Below, piece after piece: positions 8,401-46,795 of a stretch of 64,000 nt of DNA (positions are counted from its first letter, which is position 1; each line of letters begins with the position of its first letter). The stretch comes from Escherichia coli (GTDB lineage Bacteria > Pseudomonadota > Gammaproteobacteria > Enterobacterales > Enterobacteriaceae), in NCBI RefSeq assembly GCF_016903815.1, contig NZ_CP069973.1. One strand, given 5' to 3'. The notes under the pieces were generated by a model. That model worked only from the letters and a program-made list of their open reading frames with translations, was not told the origin of the DNA and ran no database searches. Made by a program: the position numbers and the translations under genes.

Positions 8401-8678
8401 TCACGCTTGATCTGATAGGGACTTTTGCCTCGTGACTTACCATTTTGCAGCCACTTCCCCCCTTCAAATGTGATGTTACCATTCCACTCTTTAAGCTCGA
8501 CTAATAGCAGACGGTCAGCAGTAATAATTAGCATATCGATTTCCATCGACCCTTGGCTATCAGTAACAACTAAGCCAGCATAGCCAAACCAACTATCTGG
8601 TAACTGCTTAACCATCATATCAACTGTTTTGGTTTCGCTGCGGTGCAGGCCAGCACCACCTACTATCTGATACTTCAC
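5483..8678 (-). CDS. Large NERD-domain protein with two tandem, degenerate protein-kinase-like domains; 3' end interrupted by IS629
   Basis: ORF 5454..8678, GTG start with AGGAG 6 nt upstream. NERD-like N-terminus (..MEIDMLIITADRLLLVELKEWNG..). Kinase catalytic-loop motifs are GISHCDIDPHNLWY (~7629..7652) and LPHGDLCPEKLLV (~6730..6753). The last 8 codons plus the stop (5454..5482) are IS-derived. Confidence 0.75.
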
Positions 8679-8888
8679 GTTTTCTCCTGCACCACTAAAT
8701 TTTTGTTGGTGGTAGTCCAGTAAAAATGGATGTAGTTATCTAAGACAGCGCATAGATTGTGCCTGCCTAACCCTAAAAAGTGTAATTATGAAAAGTAACG
8801 CTAGAAATTCTATACCGTTCGCAAAGAGAACACTTTTCAAAGATATATCATCATCTTGAACATGTCACTATAATGGTGAATCCATAAG

Positions 8889-9050
8889 ATGCGAACACCA
8901 CATCTTGTGCCACTCAGCAAACAGGCTGTAGCCATACTGATAAAACTTCAGACATGGGCAGTTGAAAATGGTCTGGTCTTTACGGGAGCACATGACCCGC
9001 GTAAACCAATCAGCGAAAACACCGTAAATAAGGCCCTTAGGTGCCCTTGA
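8889..9050 (+). pseudogene. P4-type tyrosine integrase internal fragment
   Basis: 53 codons MRTPHLVPLSKQAVAILIKLQTWAVENGLVFTGAHDPRKPISENTVNKALR, matching the H-x-VPLS-x-QA...PISENT-x-NKALR core of P4-family integrases. The catalytic C-terminus is missing, and the stop codon TGA is the first three bases of the adjacent IS3-family end. Confidence 0.7.
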
Positions 9051-9800
9051 ACCACTATATCCAGACAGCCGTTGAGCTTAAGTTAACGTTACCGAGTGAC
9101 GTTGATATTCCCTCGGTGAGAGATAACCAAGGCACCATGAGGATGCTATTCGTTATAGTGTTCGAACGCCTCCGCAAGGTTTTTTACTGCCGTTAACACG
9201 TCCGGTTTAGGTATGATACTGATGTAATCGCTCTTCATCGTTTTCACGAACCGTTCTCTCATTCCATTACTCTGAGGGCTACTGACTGCCGTCGTGCAGA
9301 GCTCCAGATTCAACTCTCTGGCGAACTGCCGTGTTTCATGAGTTGTATAAGCCGAACCGTTATCGGTCAGCCACTGGATGGGCCATCCCGGTCTATCGCC
9401 AAAGCGTTTTTCTATCGCTCCTGACATGACATCCTGCACCGTTGCTTTGCCATAACCTCCCGTGCTTGCGGCCCAGTCTATGGATTCAAGATCGCAACAG
9501 TCCAGTGCGAACGTGACACGCAGTTTTTCGTCATCATCACAACCGAACTCAAAGCCATCGGCACACCAGCGCGGGTCGCTTTCCTTCACCGATATTCGGG
9601 CCTTTATGTTCCCTCTGCGGTCGTGAAGGTTTGTCATGTAATAACAACAGGTTATTCTCGCTCATTATTCGATAAACGCGATTTGCATTCACGAACTGCA
9701 GTCCTTCGTTAAGACTGCCGTCTGAGAATAGCCCGGACACGACGATAGCCATCGAATCGCTGAACAGCGTCATTCGGCAGGCGATAAAGAAGGTGTCGTT
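9048..9800 (-). mobile_element. Degenerate, 5'-truncated IS3-family element (orfB remnant only)
   Basis: The end sequence TGAACCACTATATCC begins at 9048. ORFs 9146..9637 and 9549..9773 together read an IS3-type OrfB (..VNANRVYRIM.., [24 protein letters not shown]). It carries at least two frameshifts and an in-frame TAG where W is expected (HYNE*HPHGALGYLSPREY). No orfA is present. Confidence 0.7.
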
Positions 9801-30660: not shown

Positions 30661-31450
30661 TGCTCCATAATTTTTACGTTCAAGACAGTTGATTATCGGC
30701 GCATATGACTCAAAAAGAGCCTGATGATTGCCTCTTTTCCATAGGCTCTTTCTCTGAAGTGAAGGAAGGCCCGGAAGAAAGCACTCGCTGGCATACGTGA
30801 CTCCAGCTCAACCGGAGATAATCACCATTGTTATTTTTCTATTTAATAATAATCTCCTGAAAAATAGATATAGCAAAAATACAATCCGGCCAGATTTAAT
30901 TCCGCATTCATTACCAGAAATAATCAACACCACAACTATCATATCATTCAATAGTCACCGCTAAAATTTTATTATTTTCCTCTTCTTTACATGGAAATTG
31001 TCAACCTGTTTATTATGCCGCACTTAAATAGTTAATCACAAAACAACATCACCATTATTTGCGTGTTTTATTTATTAATAACATAGTCATACGTTCTTTT
31101 TTTACAAGGAAATAATCAATTGATAAATTGTTTTTGGTCTTAATAGTCAAGTAGGAAACATTTTAATAAATGATAAAAATCCTAAATTCCTTGTTCATAA
31201 TGTAGGGGTGTGTTAAATAGGTGGGCAAAATTTGGTTCCCCTTCTCGCCTGTAATATTGCAGCATCTTCGCACCTCCATGAGACATTGCGACTTAATAAG
31301 AAGGTGATAAGTCCTGCATATAAGCATGGACTGACCATGGTTTTATATTCATTAAAAATTTTGTTACAACCCATTGATTTAGCATAAATAAATTATAGTG
31401 GGTTCGGGTTAGTTGTGACTGTGGCATTATTTCCGTGCAAAGGAGCTGAT
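30661..31450 (+). promoter_or_regulatory. AT-rich kps region 1 promoter/leader upstream of kpsF
   Basis: ~790 bp of ORF-free, strongly AT-rich DNA directly upstream of kpsF. In characterised group 2 loci this region holds the temperature-regulated region 1 promoter. The exact -10/-35 elements were not assigned. Confidence 0.5.
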
Positions 31451-32434
31451 ATGTCTGAAAGACATTTACCTGATGACCAGAGCAGTACTATCGATCCATA
31501 TCTAATTACCTCTGTTCGCCAGACTCTGGCAGAACAAGGCGCAGCATTACAAAACTTGTCTAAACAACTGGATTCCGGGCAGTACCAGCGTGTCCTTAAT
31601 TTGATAATGAACTGTAAAGGTCACGTTATTCTTTCGGGAATGGGTAAATCAGGGCATGTCGGTCGTAAAATGTCAGCGACGCTGGCCTCTACGGGTACGC
31701 CTAGTTTCTTTATTCATCCTGCAGAAGCTTTCCATGGCGATCTGGGCATGATTACGCCTTACGATCTTCTGATCCTTATTTCTGCCAGCGGTGAAACGGA
31801 TGAAATCCTCAAGCTAGTTCCTTCACTGAAAAATTTCGGCAACCGAATTATCGCCATTACCAATAATGGAAATTCCACGCTGGCGAAAAATGCTGATGCC
31901 GTGCTGGAACTCCACATGGCGAATGAAACCTGCCCGAATAATCTTGCACCAACAACGTCTACCACGCTGACGATGGCGATCGGCGATGCGCTGGCGATTG
32001 CCATGATCCACCAACGCAAATTTATGCCGAATGATTTTGCGCGCTATCACCCGGGCGGTTCATTAGGTCGTCGCCTGCTGACCCGCGTTGCTGATGTCAT
32101 GCAGCATGATGTTCCTGCGGTACAGCTGGATGCGTCATTTAAAACCGTGATTCAACGTATCACCAGCGGATGCCAGGGAATGGTGATGGTAGAAGACGCA
32201 GAAGGTGGGCTAGCGGGCATTATCACCGACGGTGACCTGCGTCGCTTTATGGAAAAAGAGGATTCTCTGACATCCGCCACGGCTGCGCAGATGATGACAC
32301 GTGAACCGCTGACGCTACCGGAAGACACCATGATCATTGAAGCGGAAGAAAAAATGCAAAAGCACCGCGTCTCAACGTTATTGGTGACCAACAAGGCAAA
32401 TAAAGTCACTGGCCTTGTGCGCATTTTCGACTAA
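31451..32434 (+). CDS. kpsF: Arabinose-5-phosphate isomerase KpsF (SIS + tandem CBS)
   Basis: ATG at 31451 preceded by AAGGAG. MSERHLPDDQSS...GMGKSGHVGRKMSATLASTGTPSFF.. followed by a CBS pair. 327 aa. Confidence 0.93.
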   Translation: MSERHLPDDQSSTIDPYLITSVRQTLAEQGAALQNLSKQLDSGQYQRVLNLIMNCKGHVILSGMGKSGHVGRKMSATLASTGTPSFFIHPAEAFHGDLGMITPYDLLILISASGETDEILKLVPSLKNFGNRIIAITNNGNSTLAKNADAVLELHMANETCPNNLAPTTSTTLTMAIGDALAIAMIHQRKFMPNDFARYHPGGSLGRRLLTRVADVMQHDVPAVQLDASFKTVIQRITSGCQGMVMVEDAEGGLAGIITDGDLRRFMEKEDSLTSATAAQMMTREPLTLPEDTMIIEAEEKMQKHRVSTLLVTNKANKVTGLVRIFD

Positions 32435-32505
32435 TTAAGCAACGGGGTGCGAGAGGTTAGTCTCTCATTGAGTTTGCGCCCCACTGAAACTTTGATAATC
32501 GTTAC

Positions 32506-33654
32506 ATGTTGATAAAAGTGAAGTCTGCCGTATCCTGGATGCGTGCTCGTCTGTCTGCCATCTCACTGGCAGATATCCAAAAACACCTGGCGAAAATCAT
32601 CATTCTGGCACCGATGGCGGTGCTGCTGATCTATCTGGCTATCTTCAGCCAGCCTCGCTATATGAGCGAGTCGAAAGTCGCCATTAAACGCTCGGATGAT
32701 TTAAACAGCGGCAGCCTGAATTTTGGTCTGCTTCTGGGTGCCTCTAACCCCAGTTCCGCAGAAGATGCGTTGTATCTGAAAGAGTACATCAACTCGCCGG
32801 ATATGCTGGCGGCGCTGGATAAGCAACTAAATTTTCGTGAAGCGTTTAGCCACAGCGGGCTCGATTTTCTTAATCATCTTAGCAAGGATGAAACCGCAGA
32901 AGGCTTCCTGAAGTACTACAAGGACCGTATCAACGTCTCGTATGACGATAAAACCGGATTACTGAATATTCAGACGCAGGGCTTTAGCCCGGAATTTGCG
33001 CTTAAGTTTAACCAGACCGTGCTGAAAGAGTCAGAGCGCTTTATCAATGAGATGTCACATCGCATCGCGCGTGACCAGCTTGCCTTTGCAGAAACGGAGA
33101 TGGAAAAGGCACGCCAGCGTCTGGACGCCAGCAAAGCGGAATTGCTCTCTTATCAAGACAACAACAACGTTCTGGATCCACAGGCACAGGCACAGGCGGC
33201 GAGCACGTTAGTGAATACGCTGATGGGCCAGAAGATCCAGATGGAAGCGGATCTGCGTAACTTGCTGACGTATCTGCGTGAGGACGCCCCGCAAGTAGTG
33301 AGTGCGCGTAATGCGATTCAGTCATTGCAGGCACAAATCGATGAAGAACAAAGCAAAATCACAGCGCCGCAGGGTGACAAGCTAAACCGTATGGCGGTGG
33401 ATTTTGAAGAAATCAAATCAAAAGTAGAGTTCAACACCGAGCTGTACAAACTGACCCTGACCTCCATTGAAAAGACCCGTGTAGAAGCGGCTCGTAAGCT
33501 CAAGGTGCTGTCAGTGATCAGTTCGCCACAGTTGCCGCAGGAATCGTCTTTTCCAAATATCCCTTATTTGATCGCCTGCTGGTTACTGGTGTGCTGCCTG
33601 CTGTTCGGCACCCTGAAACTGTTGCTGGCTGTTATTGAAGATCACCGAGACTAA
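32506..33654 (+). CDS. kpsE: Capsule export inner-membrane protein KpsE (PCP-3 family)
   Basis: 382-aa ORF with N- and C-terminal hydrophobic anchors flanking a long coiled periplasmic region. Position after kpsF. Confidence 0.9.
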   Translation: MLIKVKSAVSWMRARLSAISLADIQKHLAKIIILAPMAVLLIYLAIFSQPRYMSESKVAIKRSDDLNSGSLNFGLLLGASNPSSAEDALYLKEYINSPDMLAALDKQLNFREAFSHSGLDFLNHLSKDETAEGFLKYYKDRINVSYDDKTGLLNIQTQGFSPEFALKFNQTVLKESERFINEMSHRIARDQLAFAETEMEKARQRLDASKAELLSYQDNNNVLDPQAQAQAASTLVNTLMGQKIQMEADLRNLLTYLREDAPQVVSARNAIQSLQAQIDEEQSKITAPQGDKLNRMAVDFEEIKSKVEFNTELYKLTLTSIEKTRVEAARKLKVLSVISSPQLPQESSFPNIPYLIACWLLVCCLLFGTLKLLLAVIEDHRD

Positions 33655-33677
33655 CGCTGTCGCTGAATGAGTTTGTG

Positions 33678-35354
33678 ATGAAATTATTTAAATCAATTTT
33701 ACTGATTGCCGCCTGTCACGCGGCGCAGGCCAGCGCGGCCATTGATATTAACGCTGACCCAAACCTTACAGGAGCCGCGCCGCTTACCGGTATTCTGAAC
33801 GGGCAACAGTCGGATACGCAAAACATGAGCGGCTTCGACAATACCCCGCCGCCCGCACCGCCGGTGGTAATGAGCCGTATGTTTGGTGCTCAACTTTTCA
33901 ACGGCACCAGCGCGGATAGCGGTGCGACGGTAGGATTCAACCCTGACTATATTCTGAATCCGGGTGATAGCATTCAGGTTCGCTTGTGGGGTGCGTTCAC
34001 CTTTGATGGTGCGTTACAGGTTGATCCCAAAGGTAATATTTTCCTGCCGAACGTTGGTCCGGTGAAAGTTGCTGGCGTCAGTAATAGTCAGCTAAATGCC
34101 CTGGTCACATCCAAAGTGAAGGAAGTATACCAGTCCAACGTCAACGTCTACGCCTCCTTATTACAGGCGCAGCCAGTAAAAGTGTACGTGACCGGATTTG
34201 TGCGTAATCCTGGTCTGTATGGCGGTGTGACGTCTGATTCGTTACTCAATTATCTGATCAAGGCTGGCGGCGTTGATCCAGAGCGCGGAAGTTACGTTGA
34301 TATTGTGGTCAAGCGCGGTAACCGCGTGCGCTCCAACGTCAACCTGTACGACTTCCTGCTGAACGGCAAACTGGGGCTTTCGCAGTTCGCCGATGGTGAC
34401 ACCATCATCGTCGGGCCGCGTCAGCATACTTTCAGCGTTCAGGGCGATGTCTTTAACAGCTACGACTTTGAGTTCCGCGAAAGCAGCATTCCCGTAACGG
34501 AAGCTTTGAGCTGGGCGCGCCCTAAGCCTGGCGCGACTCACATTACGATTATGCGTAAACAGGGGCTACAAAAACGCAGCGAATACTATCCGATCAGTTC
34601 TGCGCCAGGCCGTATGTTGCAAAATGGCGATACCTTAATCGTGAGCACTGACCGCTATGCCGGCACCATTCAGGTGCGGGTTGAAGGCGCACACTCCGGT
34701 GAACATGCCATGGTACTGCCTTATGGTTCCACTATGCGTGCGGTTCTGGAAAAAGTCCGCCCGAACAGCATGTCGCAGATGAACGCGGTTCAGCTTTATC
34801 GCCCATCAGTGGCTCAGCGTCAGAAAGAGATGCTGAATCTCTCGCTGCAAAAGCTGGAGGAAGCCTCACTTTCTGCCCAGTCATCCACCAAAGAAGAAGC
34901 CAGCCTGCGAATGCAGGAAGCACAACTGATCAGCCGCTTTGTGGCGAAAGCACGCACCGTGGTTCCGAAAGGTGAAGTGATCCTCAACGAATCCAATATT
35001 GATTCTGTTCTGCTTGAAGATGGCGACGTCATCAATATTCCGGAGAAAACATCGCTGGTTATGGTTCATGGCGAAGTGCTGTTCCCGAACGCGGTGAGCT
35101 GGCAGAAGGGTATGACCACCGAGGATTACATCGAGAAATGTGGTGGCCTGACGCAAAAATCGGGTAACGCCAGAATTATCGTCATTCGTCAGAACGGTGC
35201 TGCCGTCAACGCGGAAGACGTGGATTCACTCAAGCCGGGCGATGAGATTATGGTTCTACCGAAATATGAATCGAAAAATATTGAAGTTACCCGTGGTATT
35301 TCCACCATCCTCTATCAGCTGGCGGTGGGTGCAAAAGTGATTCTGTCTTTGTAA
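33678..35354 (+). CDS. kpsD: Capsule export protein KpsD (OPX/Wza-like)
   Basis: MKLFKSILLIAACHAAQASA signal peptide. 558 aa from the ATG at 33678. Confidence 0.9.
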   Translation: MKLFKSILLIAACHAAQASAAIDINADPNLTGAAPLTGILNGQQSDTQNMSGFDNTPPPAPPVVMSRMFGAQLFNGTSADSGATVGFNPDYILNPGDSIQVRLWGAFTFDGALQVDPKGNIFLPNVGPVKVAGVSNSQLNALVTSKVKEVYQSNVNVYASLLQAQPVKVYVTGFVRNPGLYGGVTSDSLLNYLIKAGGVDPERGSYVDIVVKRGNRVRSNVNLYDFLLNGKLGLSQFADGDTIIVGPRQHTFSVQGDVFNSYDFEFRESSIPVTEALSWARPKPGATHITIMRKQGLQKRSEYYPISSAPGRMLQNGDTLIVSTDRYAGTIQVRVEGAHSGEHAMVLPYGSTMRAVLEKVRPNSMSQMNAVQLYRPSVAQRQKEMLNLSLQKLEEASLSAQSSTKEEASLRMQEAQLISRFVAKARTVVPKGEVILNESNIDSVLLEDGDVINIPEKTSLVMVHGEVLFPNAVSWQKGMTTEDYIEKCGGLTQKSGNARIIVIRQNGAAVNAEDVDSLKPGDEIMVLPKYESKNIEVTRGISTILYQLAVGAKVILSL

Positions 35355-35363
35355 GGAGTTGAA

Positions 35364-36104
35364 ATGAGCAAAGCTGTTATTGTCATCCCGGCTCGTTATG
35401 GCTCATCGCGTCTGCCGGGTAAGCCGCTACTCGATATTGTCGGCAAACCGATGATCCAGCATGTTTACGAGCGTGCGTTACAGGTGGCGGGCGTCGCAGA
35501 AGTTTGGGTGGCAACAGACGATCAGCGTGTTGAAAAGGCCGTGCAGGCATTTGGCGGGAAAGCCATTATGACGCGCAACGATCATGAATCCGGCACCGAT
35601 CGGCTGGTCGAGGTGATGCATAAAGTCGAGGCAGATATCTACATTAACCTGCAGGGCGACGAACCAATGATTCGCCCGCGGGATGTAGAAACGCTGCTAC
35701 AAGGAATGCGTGATGATCCTGCGTTGCCAGTGGCAACGCTATGCCACGCGATTTCTGCCGAAGAAGCGGCTGAGCCAAGCACGGTAAAAGTGGTGGTAAA
35801 TACCCGCCAGGATGCGCTTTATTTCAGCCGTTCGCCTATTCCGTATCCGCGTAATGCTGAAAAAGCGCGCTACCTGAAACACGTTGGTATTTACGCTTAT
35901 CGTCGCGATGTGCTGCAAAACTACAGCCAGTTACCGGAGTCCATGCCGGAGCAGGCGGAATCACTGGAGCAGCTGCGGTTGATGAGCGCGGGGATCAACA
36001 TCCGCACATTTGAGGTTGCCGCAACCGGTCCGGGCGTCGACACCCCAGCATGCCTGGAAAAAGTGCGCGCCCTGATGGCACAGGAACTGGCTGAAAACGC
36101 ATGA
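35364..36104 (+). CDS. kpsU: CMP-Kdo synthetase KpsU (KdsB paralogue)
   Basis: 246 aa; [17 protein letters not shown]... and NLQGDEP motifs. Confidence 0.92.
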
Positions 36105-38128
36105 TTGGCATTTACTCGCCTGGCATCTGGCGTATTCCGCATCTGGAGAAATTTCTGGCGCAACCGTGCCAGAAACTTTCTCTGCTGCGCCCTGTTCCGC
36201 AAGAAGTTGATGCTATCGCCGTGTGGGGACATCGTCCCAGCGCGGCGAAACCAGTCGCCATCGCCAAAGCAGCGGGAAAACCCGTCATTCGTCTGGAAGA
36301 TGGATTTGTGCGTTCGCTGGATCTTGGCGTCAATGGCGAGCCGCCGCTTTCTCTGGTGGTGGATGATTGTGGCATTTACTACGATGCCAGCAAGCCTTCA
36401 GCACTGGAGAAACTGGTACAGGATAAAGCCGGAAATACAGCTCTGATAAGCCAGGCCAGAGAAGCGATGCACACCATCGTGACCGGGGATTTGTCGAAAT
36501 ATAACCTGGCACCTGCGTTTGTGGCTGATGAGTCAGAACGTTCAGACATCGTTCTGGTTGTCGATCAGACATTTAATGATATGTCAGTGACGTATGGCAA
36601 TGCTGGCCCGCATGAGTTTGCTGCCATGCTGGAAGCCGCGATGGCGGAAAATCCTCAAGCCGAAATTTGGGTGAAGGTGCATCCGGATGTCCTGGAAGGA
36701 AAGAAAACAGGTTATTTCGCTGATCTGTGCGCCACGCAACGAGTACGTTTGATTGCCGAGAATGTCAGCCCGCAGTCGCTGTTGCGACACGTTTCCCGGG
36801 TTTACGTCGTGACCTCCCAATATGGCTTTGAAGCCTTGCTGGCAGGAAAACCAGTAACATGCTTCGGCCAGCCCTGGTATGCAGGTTGGGGCTTAACCGA
36901 CGATCGTCATCCACAGTCCGCTTTGTTATCTGCCCGACGCGGTTCTGCCACGCTGGAGGAACTTTTTGCCGCTGCATACCTGCGTTACTGTCGCTATATC
37001 GATCTGCAAACGGGAGAAGTAAGCGATCTATTTACCGTGCTGCAATGGCTGCAATTACAACGTCGACATCTGCAACAGCGTAATGGTTATTTATGGGCGC
37101 CAGGCTTAACGCTGTGGAAGTCAGCGATCCTGAAACCTTTCTTGCAAACGGCAACAAACCGGCTGAGTTTTTCACGTCGTTGTACTGCGGCGAGCGCCTG
37201 CGTGGTATGGGGTGTAAAGGGAGAACAGCAATGGCGAGCCGAAGCGCAACGAAAATCACTGCCGTTATGGCGAATGGAAGATGGTTTTCTGCGTTCATCC
37301 GGACTTGGCTCTGACCTTTTGCCGCCGCTATCGTTGGTCCTGGATAAACGCGGGATCTACTATGACGCCACGCGCCCCAGCGACCTGGAAGTGCTGCTTA
37401 ATCACAGCCAGTTAACACTGGCGCAGCAGATGCGAGCTGAGAAGTTGCGGCAACGGGTGGTTGAAAGCAAACTGAGCAAATACAACCTGGGGGCCGATTT
37501 CTCTCTGCCTGCCGAAGCCCAAGATAAAAAAATCATCCTGGTGCCGGGTCAGGTAGAAGACGATGCCTCTATTAAAACAGGCACTGTCTCGATTAAGAGC
37601 AACCTTGAGTTATTACGCACAGTACGCGAGCGTAATCCGCACGCCTACATTGTTTATAAACCGCACCCGGATGTACTGGTGGGGAATCGCAAGGGCGATA
37701 TTCCGGCAGAACAGATTGCTGAACTTGCTGATTATCAGGCACTGGACGCCGATATTATTCAATGCATTCAGCGCGCAGATGAAGTGCATACCATGACGTC
37801 GCTGTCGGGGTTTGAAGCGTTATTACATGGCAAGCACGTACATTGTTACGGCCTGCCCTTCTATGCCGGTTGGGGTTTAACCGCTGATGAACATCGCTGC
37901 CCGCGTCGCGAGCGAAAATTAACGTTAGCGGATTTGATCTATCAGGCGCTGATTGTTTATCCAACCTATATCCACCCAACACGGCTACAACCTATTACGG
38001 TAGAAGAAGCTGCGGAATATTTAATCAAGACGCCGCGCAAGCCGATGTTTATTACCCGAAAAAAAGCGGGGCGAGTCATACGCTATTACCGCAAATTAAT
38101 TATGTTCTGCAAGGTCAGATTTGGCTAA
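36101..38128 (+). CDS. kpsC: Capsule linker beta-Kdo transferase KpsC (duplicated domain)
   Basis: 675 aa. The two halves each carry the same signature ([14 protein letters not shown] and [22 protein letters not shown] and MEDGFLRS). Confidence 0.92.
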
Positions 38129-38162
38129 ACAATTTCATGGTTGACTATTACGCAAATTATTT

Positions 38163-39395
38163 ATGCAAGACAACGCACTAACCATTTTATTATCGGGTAA
38201 AAAATATCTGCTATTGCAGGGACCGATGGGACCTTTTTTCAATGACGTCGCCGAATGGTTAGAGTCATTAGGCCGTAACGCTGTGAATGTTGTCTTCAAC
38301 GGCGGGGATCGTTTTTACTGCCGCCATCGACAATACCTGGCTTACTACCAAACGCCGAAAGAGTTTCCCGGTTGGCTGCGAGATCTCCAACGACAATATG
38401 ACTTTGATACCATCCTCTGTTTTGGTGACTGCCGCCCATTGCACAAAGAAGCAAAACGCTGGGCAAAGTCGAAAGGGATCCGCTTTCTGGCATTTGAAGA
38501 AGGATATTTACGCCCGCAATTTATAACCGTTGAAGAAGGCGGAGTGAACGCATATTCATCGCTACCGCGCGATCCGGATTTTTATCGTAAGTTGCCAGAT
38601 ATGCCTGCGCCGCACGTTGAGAACTTAAAACCTTCAACGATGAAACGTATAGGTCATGCGATGTGGTATTACCTGATGGGCTGGCATTACCGTCATGAGT
38701 TCCCTCGCTACCGCCACCACAAATCATTTTCCCCCTGGTATGAGGCTCGTTGCTGGGTTCGTGCATACTGGCGCAAACAACTTTACAAGGTAACACAGCG
38801 TAAGGTATTACCGAGGTTAATGAACGAGTTGGATCAACGTTATTATCTTGCCGTTTTGCAGGTATATAACGATAGCCAGATTCGTAACCACAGCAGTTAT
38901 AACGATGTACGTGACTATATTAATGAAGTCATGTACTCATTTTCGCGTAAAGCGCCGAAAGAAAGTTATTTGGTGATCAAACATCATCCGATGGATCGTG
39001 GTCACAGACTCTATCGACCATTAATTAAGCGGTTAAGTAAGGAATATGGCTTAGGTGAGCGAGTCATATACGTGCACGATCTCCCAATGCCGGAATTATT
39101 ACGCCACGCAAAAGCAGTAGTGACAATTAACAGTACGGCAGGGATCTCTGCGCTGATTCATAACAAACCACTCAAAGTGATGGGCAATGCCCTGTACGAC
39201 ATCAAGGGATTGACGTATCAAGGGCATTTGCACCAGTTCTGGCAGGCCGATTTTAAACCGGATATGAAACTGTTTAAGAAGTTTCGGGGGTATTTATTGG
39301 TGAAGACGCAGGTTAATGGGGTTTATTATGGGGAGATGGTTTTTAACAAGATAAAACTGGATGAATATTTTCAGAGCGTGTCGTGTCAAGTATGA
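38163..39395 (+). CDS. kpsS: Capsule linker beta-Kdo transferase KpsS
   Basis: 410 aa, same family as the KpsC halves (..FEEGYLRP.., ..TINSTAGISALIHNKPLKVMGNALYD..). Last gene of region 1. Confidence 0.9.
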   Translation: MQDNALTILLSGKKYLLLQGPMGPFFNDVAEWLESLGRNAVNVVFNGGDRFYCRHRQYLAYYQTPKEFPGWLRDLQRQYDFDTILCFGDCRPLHKEAKRWAKSKGIRFLAFEEGYLRPQFITVEEGGVNAYSSLPRDPDFYRKLPDMPAPHVENLKPSTMKRIGHAMWYYLMGWHYRHEFPRYRHHKSFSPWYEARCWVRAYWRKQLYKVTQRKVLPRLMNELDQRYYLAVLQVYNDSQIRNHSSYNDVRDYINEVMYSFSRKAPKESYLVIKHHPMDRGHRLYRPLIKRLSKEYGLGERVIYVHDLPMPELLRHAKAVVTINSTAGISALIHNKPLKVMGNALYDIKGLTYQGHLHQFWQADFKPDMKLFKKFRGYLLVKTQVNGVYYGEMVFNKIKLDEYFQSVSCQV

Positions 39396-39425
39396 AATAT
39401 AATAATAAACAACACAAAACAATTA

Positions 39426-39445
39426 TTAAAATGATGCCATTTTAA
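39426..39445. terminator. Weak AT-rich hairpin between convergent kpsS and region 2
   Basis: TTAAAATG-ATGC-CATTTTAA palindrome. Confidence 0.25.
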
Positions 39446-39656
39446 TGTTACAAATATAAACAACACCCATCCACAAGCCAAGTTAAAAATCCAAGATATA
39501 ATTTTGTTATTATCTATAAATAATACAAGTATAATCTATACGCTAATCAATTATTTTTGTAGAAAATTTATTTTATTAGTATTTACACGAAAATATGACG
39601 AAGTTATTAGCATTACACATTTATAATCATCAAATATGAAAATATTGTTACTATCA

Positions 39657-40655
39657 TCACTCCTCAATAAGTTTATCTAAAGGAATATAATATAATTGAG
39701 CAAATCTTTTTTTATGATCCCCAAGAGCAAACATGATAACCAATGATTTTGATTTGCGATCAATAGCTAAACCTTCAGGTTCCCAATGTTTTTCTTTGCC
39801 ACTGTTAAGAGAATCTTTTTTCCCTACTGTTACATTATTAAACTTTCTTACAAGCTCTCCTTTTAACGTGTAAATATAGATTCTTTTGTTTTCTCTATTC
39901 CCTCCCCCACTCAACAAATATATATATTTATTATCAGCGGTAATGGCTTGCAATACATAATTATCATTGGTTAAACCTGCATCGATAAACCATTCTATAT
40001 TTTGTTCTGATGAAATATCACTCTCGATTCGAAAGTTAACTTCTTCACTATTATAGACTCTTAATAAGTCTCTACCATTCAACTTACTTCTTACTATTAA
40101 ATATTTAGCATCTAAGGTTAAAACAGGCATTGTACTAACACGAGTATTATATGGTCTATCGAATATTTTTATAATTTTCATCTCATAAGGAAAAGAAAAA
40201 TCATTGTATTTAAAATATGTAACAAACCATCCTTTGTTAGCAAAGGCATTTCCCGCAGACGTTATTACCCCCCCCTCAAAAGGATCAAACCCAATTCCTT
40301 GATGCCCAATAAATTCAGTGGGTTTTTGAAATGACAATGCTACAGCTTTTCTTTTTTTTGTTGTTAATGAGAATCTATTTATAACTCCTTTTTCGGGTTT
40401 CCCTGTGGTATGTAAAGTATAAATATCAGAACTAAATCTATCAATCACGACTCCTTGAACAATATTATTTTTACCCTCGCCATCCCTATATAATCTCACT
40501 TTTCTCGTAACAATATCATCATTTAAATGAGAAATAAAATTAGCCAAAGGTATATTTGTTGCAGATGATGAATTATGCAACAACATTAATATCAAAAAAA
40601 ATAAATTTATATACTTCAAACACATTGAAAATTTTTCATATGAACCGATTAGCAT
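39657..40655 (-). CDS. Secreted protein of unknown function (repetitive beta-strand pattern, possibly propeller-like)
   Basis: 332-aa ORF. The likely start is the ATG at 40625, giving signal peptide MCLKYINLFFLILMLLHNSSSA. Low GC. Separated from the upstream gene by 380 bp. Confidence 0.6.
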   Translation of the reverse strand: MLIGSYEKFSMCLKYINLFFLILMLLHNSSSATNIPLANFISHLNDDIVTRKVRLYRDGEGKNNIVQGVVIDRFSSDIYTLHTTGKPEKGVINRFSLTTKKRKAVALSFQKPTEFIGHQGIGFDPFEGGVITSAGNAFANKGWFVTYFKYNDFSFPYEMKIIKIFDRPYNTRVSTMPVLTLDAKYLIVRSKLNGRDLLRVYNSEEVNFRIESDISSEQNIEWFIDAGLTNDNYVLQAITADNKYIYLLSGGGNRENKRIYIYTLKGELVRKFNNVTVGKKDSLNSGKEKHWEPEGLAIDRKSKSLVIMFALGDHKKRFAQLYYIPLDKLIEE

Positions 40656-40969
40656 AATATTAGATTATACCAAATAAACGCACTAACCAAACTTGAATTT
40701 AAAAACACAGTTCACAACTTAAGAAGCACTATTTTAAACACATTGATAAAACAATGAAAATCCCGCAAACACTCTAATTATTAAAATACATAAAAATAAA
40801 AATCGTTATAAAAAAAGTTATAATCCATCAAAAACAAAAAAATGCACATAAAATATTTCTGTTTAAGAAGATGTTATAAATACAATATTTAATTCATCAA
40901 ATGTTTTTCTATTGGCAATTTACTAAACTGTATTTACAGTATAAAAAATACTAAATACATTTCCACATC

Positions 40970-40996
40970 AGAGGTGATCACAAAACAACCACCTCT
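40970..40996 (-). terminator. Hairpin downstream of the hydrolase-TPR gene
   Basis: AGAGGTG-N13-CACCTCT, 42 nt past the stop at 41038. No strong U-tract. Confidence 0.3.
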
Positions 40997-41037
40997 TGCA
41001 GTCATATTTTTTACATCTGCATGGTTTTTAATATTAA

Positions 41038-42204
41038 TTATGAAAAATAAGTTTCATACCTTTTTTTATATGTTTCACTTTCAGGGGATAGACTATATGC
41101 CATTTGGGCCATTTTTTTTGCATCTTCCAATAACCCTTTCCTTTCATATATTAGAGATAGATTATAATACGAGCCAGCAGATGAAGGCATTAAAGATATA
41201 TATTCATAGAAATGCTGTATTGCCTGATCATATTTTTTTGACATCCTTAATGACTTTGCCAAATTATATTTAGCTGTTGTAAAATGTGGCGAAATACCGG
41301 CAACAAAAGCAAACTGCTCTACAGCTAAAGTATAGTTCTTGAGCTCCATATTTACTAAAGCAGAAATAAATATAGCAGGTTCGAGTAAAGGTTCAGCCAA
41401 CAAAGCTTCCCTGATTAAAGATTGAGCAGTGGAAAAATCTTTGTTGACAAATGCCTGGTAAGACAGGAATATATTTTTTGATAAGATTTTATTATGGCAA
41501 AGATTATTAATCTCTTTAATTTCGGGAAGTGTGTTATTTTCCACAAAAAAGGTTATTATATTAGGCATTCCATATCTTTTATCTATAAACCGCCCCACAC
41601 CATGTGTTACTCCTCGAACGGAATACGCTTTAACATTTTTAAGATCTGAAATCCTACTCAATGAAAGTAAATCAGGAAAATCCATTTCCCCACTTAATGC
41701 TGTGATTCTACATTTAGAGTTTTTTATAATTGGGCGTAGATTCTTATATATAATTTTTGTCTTTTTAGGAATTCTTTTAGCACTACGGCTCAAGGGATAT
41801 TTTAGTACCGTGTCAAAGCTAAAGGCTAACACACGACAATCCAGAAGAGCGCCAAATAATGAAGCTGCATATCCTCCCATACTGACGCCTATTGTTATAA
41901 TCTCGTCACAACCTAGTTGTTCAGAAATATATTTTATTTTTTCTATTGTTTCTGATATTGAAGAACTAAACCCTGGAATACTATCTTGGTACCATTCATT
42001 TTTACCATTGTTAATTAACAAAATATTATATGGCAGTTCATCTGCTGATTTCCAAAAATCAAAGCGGCCATCTTTTTTATCTGTACCAGAAAAAAAGACG
42101 AGCAATTTATTAGACGTTTTTTTAATCAGTCTATGAGAAACCCCATGCTCATTTATATTTAATTGTAAATTCATATTTTTATTATCTAAAGTCATGATAT
42201 ACAT
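41038..42204 (-). CDS. Alpha/beta-hydrolase-fold domain fused to C-terminal TPR repeats (candidate capsule O-acyl transferase/esterase)
   Basis: 388 aa. Nucleophile elbow GVSMGG within ..DEIITIGVSMGGYAASLFG... The C-terminal ~140 aa have TPR-like A/Y/L periodicity (..YNLAKSLRMSKKYDQAIQHFYEYISLMPSSAGSYYNLSLIYERKG..). Confidence 0.6.
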   Translation of the reverse strand: MYIMTLDNKNMNLQLNINEHGVSHRLIKKTSNKLLVFFSGTDKKDGRFDFWKSADELPYNILLINNGKNEWYQDSIPGFSSSISETIEKIKYISEQLGCDEIITIGVSMGGYAASLFGALLDCRVLAFSFDTVLKYPLSRSAKRIPKKTKIIYKNLRPIIKNSKCRITALSGEMDFPDLLSLSRISDLKNVKAYSVRGVTHGVGRFIDKRYGMPNIITFFVENNTLPEIKEINNLCHNKILSKNIFLSYQAFVNKDFSTAQSLIREALLAEPLLEPAIFISALVNMELKNYTLAVEQFAFVAGISPHFTTAKYNLAKSLRMSKKYDQAIQHFYEYISLMPSSAGSYYNLSLIYERKGLLEDAKKMAQMAYSLSPESETYKKRYETYFS

Positions 42205-42232
42205 CCATTTTTTTAAAAATTGATAAGTAACT

Positions 42233-43423
42233 TTACACTTTTAACTTTCTAGAAAATAAATTTTTCGCTTTTCTGTAAAATGGTAGTTTTTTATTCTTAA
42301 TGGATTTTTCAAGTTTATTCAGCTTTGGCTTACATGTTCGAAGCTCTTGCACAGTCTCTCTAACATAGAGCTGCGTTTGTGTTAGTGGCGGAATTAACCC
42401 ATTATATAGTTTTTTTATATAGTTAATACATAGCTGTGAAGCATTTACCTCTTTATCTACGTAAAAAAGACTTTCACGAAGATTTGATGCTCTTAATACA
42501 ATATCTTGACAGTTATTGAGACAGTGAATTATGGATGGTTCAAAATCAGAAAGACTAGTGCAAACATAACCTATCTCGTCTCTATGTTTAAACTCTAAAG
42601 ATGTAAGATCAAATTTTTGAATACCTATTTTGTTTTTCAATCCAGCTTGATATAGAAGAATAGGTTTTTCTGCATACATACCGTCAAATATAGCCCCAGA
42701 AAAATCACTTATAATCAAATCTGCCGCACAAAGCAATTTTAATTGGTCCGCAGAACCATCGTAAACATGTTTTAAGTTTGCTTTATTTGCAGAATCTACC
42801 CATTCAGGTATTTTTGCATCATTATTGTGATGCATCTTTAATATAAGATTATATTTTGATTGTAACCGAGATATTGTATCCAGAAGTTCAAAATATGAAC
42901 CCAACTCCCCCCAAGTAGGCATGTAAAGCAATGTCTTTTTGGTTATATCTAATTTTAATTCTTTATAAAGCTCTTCTCTATTTGAGTACTTTTGTTTGTA
43001 CTCTAACCAATTATCAAACTTTGGATTTCCAACAGGATAGGATGGCGCATAGTGAGAAACAATATTAGATGAATAGTCACCATACATTAAATTCATGTCA
43101 GCAAGAGAACGCCATTCACCATAATTATGGCGCTCCTTTGCTAAACCATATTGTATTGAAACTAATTTACTATTTTTAATTTTCTCAATACCAGGAAAAG
43201 CCGACTGAAAAAGTAAGATATCATGAGTCCCATCAATAACGGGAACATCATGGGGCTCAATATACACTACATTCCATGATTTGTTATTAATTAACTTCTT
43301 GGGAAACAAGGCAAGGTTATTGTTTTTCCTAATAATAAAAATAGTTGGTTTTTCTAATTTTAATGCAATAGATTTGAATTGAATCAACTGGAATGGATTC
43401 CAGATTATAAATCCTACTTTCAT
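42233..43423 (-). CDS. CDP-glycerol glycerophosphotransferase (TagB/TagF family)
   Basis: 396 aa. KKTLLYMPTWGE and LLCAADLIISDFSGAIFDGMYAEKPILLY match the Glyphos_transf signatures. Confidence 0.75.
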   Translation of the reverse strand: MKVGFIIWNPFQLIQFKSIALKLEKPTIFIIRKNNNLALFPKKLINNKSWNVVYIEPHDVPVIDGTHDILLFQSAFPGIEKIKNSKLVSIQYGLAKERHNYGEWRSLADMNLMYGDYSSNIVSHYAPSYPVGNPKFDNWLEYKQKYSNREELYKELKLDITKKTLLYMPTWGELGSYFELLDTISRLQSKYNLILKMHHNNDAKIPEWVDSANKANLKHVYDGSADQLKLLCAADLIISDFSGAIFDGMYAEKPILLYQAGLKNKIGIQKFDLTSLEFKHRDEIGYVCTSLSDFEPSIIHCLNNCQDIVLRASNLRESLFYVDKEVNASQLCINYIKKLYNGLIPPLTQTQLYVRETVQELRTCKPKLNKLEKSIKNKKLPFYRKAKNLFSRKLKV

Positions 43424-43429
43424 ATTTAT

Positions 43430-44689
43430 TCACTTTGTAATTTGTTCAAAAATTATTCTTTCTTTATCCCATTCATGCAGGTGGGTTCCCACTTCATTCT
43501 CATCAACAAAATAATGAGTATGAAAATCTTTATTGTTATGGAAATGAGTAAAACCGAACAAACATTCTTTGGGTATTTTACCAACTATAGAGTAAACCCA
43601 ATAGGCAACTGCTAGTCCTGTACTTGGTAGACCATCTAGTTTTTTTATAAGTGATTTGTACACATGATTTGGTATAACCGTATATTCCATTTCCATTAAT
43701 TGTGGAGCAAGAAAATATTTGTTTGCATCTCTTCTTTTTATTGTGAAATTATTCGCCGCAAAAATAACAAGTCTATTGTTTTTGAGATTATTATTGCTTA
43801 CTTCTTTATTTGCCACTCTAACCCATATATCCTGCTTTGTACCATAATCATCCGGATAGTCCAGGGTATAATTGTTTATTCTAATCACTGTTTTTTTAGA
43901 ATCAATCAACGCTCCATGACCGGTATTTATTTCTGTTGGTGCATTCCCAACAATACAAAAACTACCAGCGGAATTTCTAATTGATTTTATAAACTCATTT
44001 CGTGATTTTAAGATGTGAGAATATTGTTCACTTCCTCTTTGTATATATGGATCATTAAAAATCTTATTCTTTTTAATCTTGTTAAAAACATAAGGACTGC
44101 TTGTATATTTCAACAGAAACTTTTTCCCTATTTGCTTAATAATTTCATTAGCTTTAGCATCCTTATCATTTTGATATAACATTATTGCCAAGCGTAATTT
44201 TTGACTTTTATTTAAATTTCTCAATGATACATCAGAGCAAAGTCGTGATATTATTCTTTTAAGCCTGTCTGATTTATAGCCATATTTTTGTGAAATAAAA
44301 TCAGAATACCTAAGATTAATAGTTATTTCTTTATTTCTGTAATGCGCTGAAATAAAATGTTTTTCTGTAATATCGCTATAGTTACGATATCTTAGTAACC
44401 AATCAGCAATTGAGTAATGAATGTAACGTGATTTTACTTTATTGAATAAGTAAAAAGGTACTATCCCTACATTATCATGCGTTTTTTTTATCTTTATAAA
44501 CAGCAAAGAATTAATAAAATGAAAAAAATGAACTTTACGTATAAACCAAGAACCTTGTAACTTCACCACATTATCTTCACCTATAAAAATGAGTAATCTC
44601 ATTATTAGCTTGTCATAAATACTATATCTAGAAAAATAAACATCTTGCGCTTTTTTTATGAGTATTTTCTTTATTGACATATTATGCAA
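43430..44689 (-). CDS. Two-domain protein with a C-terminal GT29 (eukaryote-type sialyltransferase)-like domain
   Basis: 419 aa. L-motif-like FCIVGNAPTEINTGHGALIDSKKTVIRINN...DYGTK, S-motif-like PSTGLAVAYWVYSIVGKIPKECLFGF, then HTHYF and HLHEWDKE (motif III/VS-like). Confidence 0.6.
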   Translation of the reverse strand: MHNMSIKKILIKKAQDVYFSRYSIYDKLIMRLLIFIGEDNVVKLQGSWFIRKVHFFHFINSLLFIKIKKTHDNVGIVPFYLFNKVKSRYIHYSIADWLLRYRNYSDITEKHFISAHYRNKEITINLRYSDFISQKYGYKSDRLKRIISRLCSDVSLRNLNKSQKLRLAIMLYQNDKDAKANEIIKQIGKKFLLKYTSSPYVFNKIKKNKIFNDPYIQRGSEQYSHILKSRNEFIKSIRNSAGSFCIVGNAPTEINTGHGALIDSKKTVIRINNYTLDYPDDYGTKQDIWVRVANKEVSNNNLKNNRLVIFAANNFTIKRRDANKYFLAPQLMEMEYTVIPNHVYKSLIKKLDGLPSTGLAVAYWVYSIVGKIPKECLFGFTHFHNNKDFHTHYFVDENEVGTHLHEWDKERIIFEQITK

Positions 44690-44782
44690 GTTTCTTTTGT
44701 TAGTTCGCTCTAAGCCTCAACAGACATAGGTGTTCATTCCCTTTTCAAGGGGATGAACACCTACCTGAACATAAACATTAAT

Positions 44783-45178
44783 TTAACTGTATTTTTTAAT
44801 CTCCGTAATAAGTTTTGTAGTAGAAATGCCTTCCGTCCTTGGTAAATAAATAACCTCGCATAACTTTTTAAACATATCAAACTTTCCTTCCCAATCATTA
44901 CCCATAATAAGAATGTTAGCTTTATATTTTTTTATATACTCACCTTTTAATTCAAGTGACTCCTCAAGAAATACGTCATCAACATATTGTAGAGAACGAA
45001 TAATTTCACATCGCTCATTTTCTGGGTAAACTGGGTATCTTTGCTTTTTAGAGAAACTTAATGCATCGGATGACACGCCAACAATTAATCGATCACCATA
45101 TTTCTTTGCTCTTTCTAAAATTTTAATGTGGCCAATATGTAAAACATCAAATGTTCCAAAGGTTATGACTGTACGCAT
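44783..45178 (-). CDS. Glycerol-3-phosphate cytidylyltransferase (TagD-like)
   Basis: From the ATG at 45178: MRTVITFGTFDVLHIGHIKILERAKKYGD...LPRTEGISTTKLI, near-collinear with TagD (the track ORF starts at a TTG at 45190). Confidence 0.9.
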   Translation of the reverse strand: MRTVITFGTFDVLHIGHIKILERAKKYGDRLIVGVSSDALSFSKKQRYPVYPENERCEIIRSLQYVDDVFLEESLELKGEYIKKYKANILIMGNDWEGKFDMFKKLCEVIYLPRTEGISTTKLITEIKKYS

Positions 45179-45347: not shown

Positions 45348-46022
45348 TCAATATGTATTAATTGTTATGTTGTTTTTATACTCCTCTATCCCCTCCTGAA
45401 CATCCTCATGAAAACTAACCGCATTATCATCCATAAACACAATGGCCACATCGCAAAACTCTTTCAATGAATTCAAACTATGTGAAACCATTAAAAAACT
45501 AGATTCTTTATGCCTTTCTTTAAACAATTGAGCGCACTTTTCTTTAAACCTGGCATCACCGACCGCCGTTACTTCATCGACGATATAATAATCAAACTTA
45601 AATGCCATGCTTAAACCAAAGCCCAGGCGAGATCGCATACCTGATGAGTAAGTTTTAATCGGCATATCAAAGTACTTACCGAGTTCGGCAAATTCTTCGA
45701 CAAACTCAATTTTCTCTTTCAGTTCTTCTTGCTTCGCGTATAACCGCGCAACAAATTTTACGTTTTCGCGTCCGGTTAAACTTCCCTGAAATCCACCTGC
45801 GAGGCCGACTGGCCATGATATTGTTTTATTAGTGATGATCTTTCCACTGTCGGGGCGGTCAATGCCGCCAATCATTCTCAGTAACGTTGATTTACCCGCT
45901 CCGTTGCGACCAATAAAGGCAACACTTTTTCCTGAAGGGATTTCAATATTTAAATCCTTAAAGACATAGTGTCGACCCGTTGGCGTGCGATAGGACTTCG
46001 TCAAATTCTCAATCTTAATCAT
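45348..46022 (-). CDS. kpsT: Capsule ABC transporter ATPase KpsT
   Basis: 224 aa. Walker A GRNGAGKST, signature YSSGMRSRL, Walker B YYIVDE. Overlaps the kpsM stop. Confidence 0.93.
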   Translation of the reverse strand: MIKIENLTKSYRTPTGRHYVFKDLNIEIPSGKSVAFIGRNGAGKSTLLRMIGGIDRPDSGKIITNKTISWPVGLAGGFQGSLTGRENVKFVARLYAKQEELKEKIEFVEEFAELGKYFDMPIKTYSSGMRSRLGFGLSMAFKFDYYIVDEVTAVGDARFKEKCAQLFKERHKESSFLMVSHSLNSLKEFCDVAIVFMDDNAVSFHEDVQEGIEEYKNNITINTY

Positions 46023-46795
46023 GATGTCAGCATTGCCTCTTCACGCGTTCGGTATAACGCCAGACCGATGAACAGGGTGACCAGAGTGAACATTGCCAGG
46101 TAGTTCAGACTTACGCCTTCGCTGATATAGCCAGGCATAACAGCCTCGCGGCTTAGCTCCACCACATGTACTAATGGGTTCCAGAGTAGATATGACCAGT
46201 ATTGCTTTGGAATCGAGTGTAGAGGGAACATGATGCAGGAGATGAAATACAGCGGCTTAAGCAGTATCGGCAGAACCTTTTGCATTTCGGGGAAGGTTTT
46301 ACCAACGACCATGAATATTAAGCCGACGCCACATGAAAGAATGATCAGCAGGCTCCAGGTAGCCACAAGTTGTAAAAAATTTGTTATCTCGAAATATTCG
46401 CCTGCCATCCAGACAATGAGCATAAGCAGAATATAAACAGCAACGTAAATCAGTGTCTCAAGCAGTGCGCGTGCAATGATCGTATCGATGGGTTTTACTG
46501 GTCGATAATTAAACAACCCCTGATTCGCTTCAATAGCACCTACAGAACGATTGCTGATACTGCTAAAGATAAAAAAGGGAATCAGGCCATTAAGTAAAAA
46601 CACCGGGAATGAGATGTCTGGCATCGTGCGGTGCATAATGTAACCAAAAATGCCCAACAGTATCAGCAAATGCGCAGAGGGTTCGAGAATCGCCCACAAA
46701 TATCCCAGACGGAACTTACCAAAGCGTGTTCGTATTTCTCGTAGAAATAATGCCTCTACGGTGACTTTCTGGACTTCAAATCCACTTCTTGCCAT
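46019..46795 (-). CDS. kpsM: Capsule ABC-2 transporter permease KpsM
   Basis: 258 aa from the ATG at 46795 (MARSGFEVQKVTVEALFLREIRTRFGKF...). The track ORF extends upstream to 46936 with no support. Confidence 0.9.
   Translation of the reverse strand: MARSGFEVQKVTVEALFLREIRTRFGKFRLGYLWAILEPSAHLLILLGIFGYIMHRTMPDISFPVFLLNGLIPFFIFSSISNRSVGAIEANQGLFNYRPVKPIDTIIARALLETLIYVAVYILLMLIVWMAGEYFEITNFLQLVATWSLLIILSCGVGLIFMVVGKTFPEMQKVLPILLKPLYFISCIMFPLHSIPKQYWSYLLWNPLVHVVELSREAVMPGYISEGVSLNYLAMFTLVTLFIGLALYRTREEAMLTS

Follow-up and report, generated by a model that had tools for sequence, protein, structure and literature searches.

A gene on the minus strand (positions 43430-44680) of a 64,000-nucleotide stretch of the Escherichia coli contig NZ_CP069973.1 (assembly GCF_016903815.1; the whole stretch is termed “the window” below) was analyzed computationally. 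It is located in region 2 of a group 2 capsule cluster, and its product is a cytoplasmic protein of 416 residues with two domains: a helical domain resembling tetratricopeptide repeats (TPRs), followed by a catalytic domain with the fold of glycosyltransferase family 29 (GT29) and four intact sialylmotif cores. [quoted passage not shown] In this role, it would be an inverting alpha-Kdo transferase that uses cytidine monophosphate (CMP)-beta-Kdo as the donor and glycerol as the acceptor, and it would alternate with a TagF-like glycerophosphotransferase encoded by the adjacent gene.

The interval 43430-44689 is one long open reading frame (ORF) on the minus strand; the plus-strand frame is full of stops. 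Counted from the TTG at 44689, the ORF has 419 codons. Translation likely begins at the ATG at 44680, which yields 416 amino acids (aa), the same length as RefSeq WP_029701467, and the stop codon is at 43430-43432. The RefSeq name on identical DNA is “glycosyltransferase family 29 protein”. An AlphaFold model of the 416-aa protein (predicted local-distance difference test, pLDDT, 88.8; predicted template-modeling score, pTM, 0.87) featured a helical, TPR-like N-terminal domain and no apparent membrane anchor (this was judged from the model only; no transmembrane predictor was used). The N-terminal ca. 220 residues had been left unassigned in the original prediction of a GT29-type enzyme at this position; in the model they belong to the TPR-like domain. 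The gene, its domains, and the equivalents of the sialylmotifs are as follows.

43430..44680, minus strand: gene for the TPR-GT29-like protein, 416 aa, K24_11 in kTYPr; predicted alpha-Kdo transferase (ORF translation, RefSeq, PF00777, AlphaFold)
43973..44680, minus strand: N-terminal all-helical TPR-like domain, aa 1-236; possible role in binding the polymer or a protein partner
43433..43972, minus strand: C-terminal GT29-like catalytic domain, aa 237-416
43835..43960, minus strand: sialylmotif L equivalent, aa 241-282, FCIVGN...IDS...VIRINN...DYGTK, aligned to ST3Gal-I, ST8SiaIII and ST6GalNAc2
43550..43627, minus strand: sialylmotif S equivalent, aa 352-377, PSTG...LFGF, aligned to YPSTG...LYGF of ST3Gal-I
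43508..43522, minus strand: motif III equivalent, aa 387-391, HTHYF, aligned to HHYWE of ST3Gal-I; H389 and Y390 invariant
43460..43483, minus strand: motif VS equivalent, aa 400-407, HLHEWDKE, with the spacing H402-x4-E407; H402 and E407 invariant, H400 and W404 nearly so

The resemblance of the 416-aa protein to GT29 enzymes was confirmed and is beyond chance. The Pfam family PF00777 was matched with an E-value of 1.6e-7 and a score of 31.4 bits, against a gathering cut-off of 23, in an alignment that spans positions 28-262 of the 272-position profile, and the four motif strings quoted in the original prediction were all present in the protein, in order. The fold is the modified GT-A (variant 2) fold of the solved GT29 structures. 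A single-sequence phmmer search against the PDB sequences returned nothing useful, and a family profile (24 homologues) was required; this profile aligned motifs L, S and III residue by residue to pig ST3Gal-I, and an alignment to human ST8SiaIII was also obtained. Among the 24 homologues, the invariant residues of motif L were G245, N246, G256, I259, D260, R267, N269, Y271, D278, Y279 and G280, and those of motif S were P352, S353, T354, G355, G367, G376 and F377. The cores of all four motifs were invariant in this set, in which identity falls to 21%, and their retention over such a distance argues for a working active site. Motif L is the CMP-binding region in GT29 enzymes. In GT29 structures, the histidine of the VS motif is the catalytic base, and H402 is the predicted base here.

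The eukaryotic GT29 enzymes are marked by a type II membrane anchor and by a conserved disulfide that links motifs L and S, and both hallmarks are absent from the K24 protein; Cys242 is conserved, but conservation in the family does not extend to Cys373 of motif S. Petit et al. (2018; PMC5811610) described 23 bacterial GT29-like sequences having the four motifs without the disulfide or a membrane anchor, and placed them basal to the eukaryotic sequences. The term “eukaryote-type”, which had been applied to the motif set, is misleading, because such bacterial sequences have been known since that study. No match to PF05159 (Capsule_synth) was obtained for the GT29-like protein in Pfam; KpsC and KpsS from the same window matched that family with E-values of 2e-105 and 5e-91.

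By gene content and sequence identity, this locus is that of K24 or a closely related allele. Region 2 was collinear with that of the O83:K24:H31 strain A0 34/86, with the five genes in the same order and protein identities of 94.1-97.7%, and the ORF sizes and annotations matched kTYPr entries K24_8 to K24_12. The 1251-nt GT29 gene was assigned to exactly one K locus in the Gladstone database. It was carried by 60 of 5426 complete E. coli genomes: the allele of the window by 49, and a 97%-identical allele by the other 11, which include the probiotic strain A0 34/86 and the Crohn's-associated strains LF82 and NRG857C. A K2-like locus (galactose-glycerol-phosphate, of the CpsABCD type) was also considered and was rejected; neither a large CpsD-type polymerase nor a galactosyltransferase was present, and the gene matches K24 strains. 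The structural reference for K24 is Lenter, Jann and Jann (1990), according to the kTYPr and Gladstone papers.

The only activated donors encoded by the locus are CMP-Kdo and cytidine diphosphate (CDP)-glycerol, as the original prediction had held. Its statement that sialic-acid genes of the neuABC type are missing was also borne out, in that none was found among the five region 2 ORFs or in the annotation of a matching genome, which covers window positions 1 to ca. 40000. K24 is listed among the capsules with alpha-pyranosidic Kdo in a 2026 Journal of Biological Chemistry paper (PMC12887879). Those capsule Kdo transferases that have been characterized (KpsC, KpsS and KrkA) act with retention and form beta-Kdo; according to recent catalogues, an inverting enzyme is required for alpha-Kdo capsules. 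In GT29 enzymes, CMP-beta-ulosonic donors are converted into alpha products with inversion (PMC11288761). Because KpsC and KpsS retain the configuration and GT29 enzymes invert it, the GT29-like protein is the sole candidate in region 2 for alpha-Kdo transfer.

The domain architecture of relatives points the same way. An exhaustive HMMER search of 1.84 billion representative proteins with the catalytic domain yielded 809 relatives. Among the best 150 of these, 47 were longer than 550 aa; 41 of the 47 matched PF00777, and 34 carried PF05159 (KpsC/KpsS-type), often with a TPR segment between the two. This fusion provides a link to CMP-Kdo chemistry. The TagF-like family PF04464 was not among the 25 fused families listed for the long relatives.

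Orthologous genes were compared at eight independent loci: those of E. coli, Pseudomonas kurunegalensis, P. paraversuta, Pusillimonas and Polycladidibacter, and those on three metagenomic contigs. A scan of GTDB added three further loci only. The GT29-like and TagF-like genes were adjacent in all eight, with the TagF-like gene directly downstream. The gene for the CDP-glycerol synthase was immediately upstream in seven loci; in the eighth (L014), the distance was 5.6 kb. Seven of the eight are located beside export genes for an ATP-binding cassette (ABC) transporter capsule, the exception being a short Polycladidibacter fragment at a contig end, and no neu genes were seen in any of the eight. 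In Pusillimonas and Polycladidibacter, a minimal cassette was found, comprising the genes for the CDP-glycerol synthase, the GT29-like protein and the TagF-like enzyme; since the two accessory genes of the E. coli locus are absent near the Pusillimonas cassette, these three genes look sufficient. The Kdo-pathway genes at the Pseudomonas locus were considered as specific evidence for the donor. This argument was weakened, because other loci also carry kpsC and kpsS, whose products require CMP-Kdo in any case.

The most distant match (P0027; 596 aa, 21% identity, with a clear PF00777 match) is found at positions 8001-9791 of locus L015. Its surroundings include ABC-transporter capsule genes, a GT2 gene, a UDP-galactopyranose mutase gene (UDP, uridine diphosphate) and a GT4 gene, and no cytidylyltransferase, TagF-like or neu genes were nearby. 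GT29-like enzymes thus also occur in capsule loci of the galactofuranose type.

A pathway can be proposed from these data. KpsS and KpsC would make a beta-Kdo oligomer on phosphatidylglycerol. CMP-beta-Kdo would be supplied by KpsF and KpsU, and CDP-glycerol by the TagD-like enzyme of region 2. The TagF-like enzyme would place glycerol phosphate on a Kdo hydroxyl, initially that of the anchor and then that of the growing chain, and the GT29-like enzyme would move Kdo from CMP-beta-Kdo to the free glycerol hydroxyl with inversion, giving alpha-Kdop. In the latter step, H402 would serve as the base, CMP would be held by motifs L and S, and the phosphate would be contacted by H389/Y390. With the two enzymes acting in turn, poly(alpha-Kdo-glycerol-phosphate) would result, to be exported by KpsMT-KpsED. 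A probable role of the TPR-like domain is to hold the anionic chain or partner enzymes, as the TPRs of the CpsD polymerases of Actinobacillus pleuropneumoniae do.

Other roles for the protein were weighed against this one. The original prediction had named Kdo and glycerol phosphate as the groups that might be transferred by a capsule polymerase component. The Kdo part is supported by the alpha-Kdop of K24 and the fusions to Kdo transferases; the glycerol-phosphate part is disfavored, as the TagF-like enzyme already accounts for that step. If the GT29-like domain were to use CDP-glycerol and transfer glycerol phosphate with CMP leaving, Kdo being added by some other enzyme, the release of CMP by both donors and the position of the gene directly after the CDP-glycerol synthase gene in seven of the eight loci would be readily explained. 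We nevertheless regard this as quite improbable: the next gene always encodes a PF04464 glycerophosphotransferase, whose activity would be duplicated; region 2 would be left with no other candidate for alpha-Kdo transfer; and the relatives are fused to Kdo-transferase domains, with PF04464 missing from the fused families listed. We know of no GT29-fold phosphotransferase. It is unlikely, too, that the protein is a Kdo transferase that does not polymerize, contributing a single transition, branch or cap residue to a repeat that is built otherwise. Such transition transferases (CpsA, CpsC) are present in related systems, and the TPR/alpha-beta-hydrolase protein encoded in region 2 has only putative functions. 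However, Kdo is required in every repeat if the repeat consists of Kdo and glycerol phosphate, and the minimal cassette of Pusillimonas and Polycladidibacter offers only the CDP-glycerol synthase, GT29-like and TagF-like genes to build it.

The absence of neuABC-type genes from region 2, from the matching genome over window positions 1-40000, and from the eight orthologous loci argues against a genuine sialyltransferase that decorates the capsule or lipopolysaccharide using CMP-N-acetylneuraminic acid or another nonulosonic acid, as does the listing of K24 with the Kdo capsules rather than the sialic-acid capsules (PMC12887879). The fold and motifs are those of GT29, and every biochemically characterized GT29 enzyme is a sialyltransferase; even so, such an activity is hardly credible here. 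Similarly, a catalytically dead scaffold that organizes the complex via its TPR domain would be in keeping with the frequent occurrence of the relatives as parts of multi-domain assemblies, but is very improbable, as the invariance of the catalytic motif residues down to 21% identity would not be expected of a dead domain.

Several points weigh against the assignment of the protein as the Kdo-adding half of the K24 polymerase. Pfam assigns the protein to GT29 through PF00777, but the dbCAN GT29 hidden Markov model gave no match to K24_11, and its DIAMOND neighbor is the unclassified “GT0” (kTYPr supplement). PF05159 takes in non-Kdo ulosonic-acid transferases as well, so the fusions point to CMP-ulosonic acids generally. 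The protein of the window differs from the allele of the K24 type strain at 21 of 416 residues (ca. 3% at the DNA level), with 17 of the 21 substitutions in the TPR-like half, and the serological identity with K24 is assumed. Finally, the glycerol-phosphate content and the linkages of K24 are taken from the gene content and from the title of the 1990 paper of Lenter, Jann and Jann, which reportedly describes the polymer as made up of alpha-KDOp and glycerol phosphate.

Several elements of this assignment are already on record, namely the RefSeq GT29 name, the bacterial GT29 sequences (2018), the plant enzyme RCKT1, and a GT29-GT107 ORF of K6 (2026). No role assignment for the K24 GT29-like protein was found in the accessible literature, and the dbCAN table of kTYPr lists “GT0” only. 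A biochemical demonstration that a GT29-fold enzyme transfers Kdo was likewise not found.

The animal GT29 sialyltransferases (ST3Gal-I, ST6Gal1, ST6GalNAc2 and ST8SiaIII) are only 15-18% identical to the K24 protein. In contrast to them, it has no membrane anchor and no conserved L-S disulfide, features an N-terminal TPR-like domain, and is encoded in a locus without a sialic-acid pathway; CMP-Kdo is predicted to be its donor and a glycerol hydroxyl in the growing polymer its acceptor. A functional parallel is RCKT1 of Arabidopsis, which is also of the GT29 type in an organism without sialic acid, and which has been assigned alpha-Kdo transfer from CMP-beta-Kdo; its status as an inverting CMP-beta-Kdo transferase is genetically supported (PMC11288761). 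A type II membrane protein of the Golgi with pectin as its target, RCKT1 could not be produced in E. coli (PMC11288761), whereas the K24 protein is soluble, bacterial and linked to a defined polymer product, which makes it much more accessible to assays.

Among bacteria, GT29-like domains are present in the E. coli K6, K94, K111 and K126 loci (kTYPr, PMC13171606). These domains and the bacterial GT29-like sequences share with the K24 protein the four sialylmotifs, the absence of a transmembrane segment and of the disulfide, and a location in ABC-transporter capsule loci. The GT29-GT107 ORF of K6 was proposed in 2026 to make poly-Kdo (kTYPr, PMC13171606). K126_10 consists of Capsule_synth, TPR and GT29 domains, so its TPR-GT29 arrangement is that of the K24 protein. 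Compared to the K6 and K126 proteins, the K24 protein lacks a fused Kdo-transferase domain, and its gene is paired with a separate TagF-like gene. The 800-aa Capsule_synth-TPR-GT29 protein (Gladstone DB_group_21, kTYPr K126_10) is encoded in another E. coli K locus together with the same cytidylyltransferase, kslA, and a Cps2A-like glycerophosphotransferase, and this locus may specify a related Kdo-glycerol-phosphate polymer.

The enzymes KpsC, KpsS, WbbB and KrkA (GT107, GT99 and related families) also use CMP-beta-Kdo in capsule synthesis and are often fused to relatives of the K24 domain. They differ from it in fold and family and operate through a covalent Asp adduct with retention, giving beta-Kdo, whereas K24 needs alpha-Kdo. 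The CpsD/CpsA/CpsB system of A. pleuropneumoniae makes a teichoic-acid-like capsule from CDP-glycerol on a poly-Kdo anchor (PMC11666461), as is proposed here for K24. Common to the two systems are a CpsB-like glycerol-3-phosphate cytidylyltransferase, a CpsA-like PF04464 enzyme, and a TPR attached to the sugar-adding module. The sugar module of K24 is GT29-like with a CMP donor, not a GT-B galactosyltransferase that uses UDP-Gal (UDP-galactose) as in CpsD. Moreover, CpsD combines the glycosyltransferase, PF04464 and TPR portions in one polypeptide, whereas the K24 polymerase would be split over two. A LicD-type CpsC was not detected in the K24 locus by Pfam and homologue checks.

For the enzymes that make alpha-linked Kdo in capsules, K24 is the simplest test case that we found, as it involves two sugar or polyol units, a pair of transferases and a bacterial protein that is soluble. 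If Kdo transfer were demonstrated, the protein would afford the first in vitro proof of a GT29-fold enzyme using CMP-Kdo, which would aid the study of RCKT1, a protein that resisted expression and assay; it would also bear on the proposed bacterial origin of the eukaryotic sialyltransferases. A more far-reaching proposal is advanced tentatively, and we hold it to be possible rather than probable. According to it, the K24 protein would be the first tractable GT29-fold CMP-Kdo enzyme, a soluble, TPR-guided, inverting alpha-Kdo:glycerol transferase that polymerizes with a separate TagF-like enzyme and defines a bacterial “TPR-GT29” clade, and Kdo transfer would perhaps be older than sialic-acid transfer. 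Were this true, Kdo transfer could be the older function of a fold that was inherited by the eukaryotic sialyltransferases and RCKT1. The GT29-like and TagF-like pair could also serve in the enzymatic synthesis of a defined Kdo-glycerol-phosphate antigen.

The capsule cluster in the window is of the classical E. coli group 2 type, with kpsFEDUCS, region 2 and kpsTM followed by the gsp type II secretion genes. Its further features are listed here.

31415-39395, plus strand: kpsFEDUCS
35364..39395, plus strand: kpsU (CMP-Kdo synthetase), kpsC and kpsS (beta-Kdo transferases; PF05159, E 2e-105 and 5e-91; RefSeq)
39657-45178, minus strand: region 2, five genes
39657..40625, minus strand: five-bladed beta-propeller with a signal-peptide-like N-terminus, MCLKYINLFFLILMLLHNSSSA (PF21311, E 1.9e-15)
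41038..42195, minus strand: accessory protein, 385 aa, with an alpha/beta-hydrolase-like N-terminal half and a C-terminal TPR (TPR Pfam matches at aa 258-381)
42233..43423, minus strand: TagF/TarF/CpsA-like CDP-glycerol glycerophosphotransferase, 396 aa (PF04464, E 3.9e-16; weak TarF and TarB NCBIfam matches)
44783..45178, minus strand: TagD/CpsB-like glycerol-3-phosphate cytidylyltransferase, predicted to make CDP-glycerol (PF01467, E 4e-26; TIGR01518, E 8e-38)
45348..46795, minus strand: kpsT and kpsM, the ABC exporter of region 3 (PF00005, PF01061; RefSeq)

KpsC and KpsS build a lipid-linked poly-Kdo anchor (PMC11666461), and kpsU, kpsC and kpsS together are predicted to provide the donor and the primer. 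The TagF-like enzyme is predicted to add glycerol phosphate onto Kdo; a precedent is Cps7A, which transfers glycerol 3-phosphate onto beta-Kdo (PMC11666461). The 131-aa cytidylyltransferase is called “pantoate--beta-alanine ligase” by RefSeq. Its best NCBIfam model is TIGR01518, and the RefSeq name is probably wrong.

Homologues of the 385-aa accessory protein carry the names alpha/beta hydrolase or Asp2 (accessory Sec protein), and a weak XcbB/CpsF match was noted. It is possibly an O-acyl transferase or esterase that O-acylates the polymer, or a scaffold. Its candidacy as a LicD-type poly(glycerol 3-phosphate) polymerase, CpsC, was rejected, as there was no LicD match and the homologues are alpha/beta-hydrolase-like or Asp2-like. 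The protein is encoded at the Pseudomonas and metagenome loci and not near the cassette in Pusillimonas.

The beta-propeller gene is annotated as “phage baseplate protein” or “hypothetical” by RefSeq and is conserved in loci L002, L004 and L008. At the Pseudomonas and metagenome loci, it is on the strand opposite to that of the biosynthetic genes. A putative exported propeller inside a region devoted to cytoplasmic synthesis is unexpected. In strain A0 34/86, ISEc39 is inserted between the propeller gene and kpsS (L007, 11172-12380); this element is absent from the window. The GC content of region 2 was 28-33% (window 39000-45000), compared to 50-54% in kpsEDUC. Such a low value is the usual mark of foreign origin, and orthologous cassettes are found in Pseudomonas, Pusillimonas and an alphaproteobacterium.

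Collinearity of the upstream part of the window with strain 7/2 was ruled out, as the window contains no transfer RNA genes; strain 2779 matches instead. The mosaic island upstream of kps (window ca. 5450-31000) carries IS66 and IS3 insertion-sequence copies, truncated tssF and tssG, genes for a NERD-domain kinase-family protein of 1073 aa and for a protein with a TIR domain, and the toxin-antitoxin pair CbtA/YeeU accompanied by the usual CP4-like genes.

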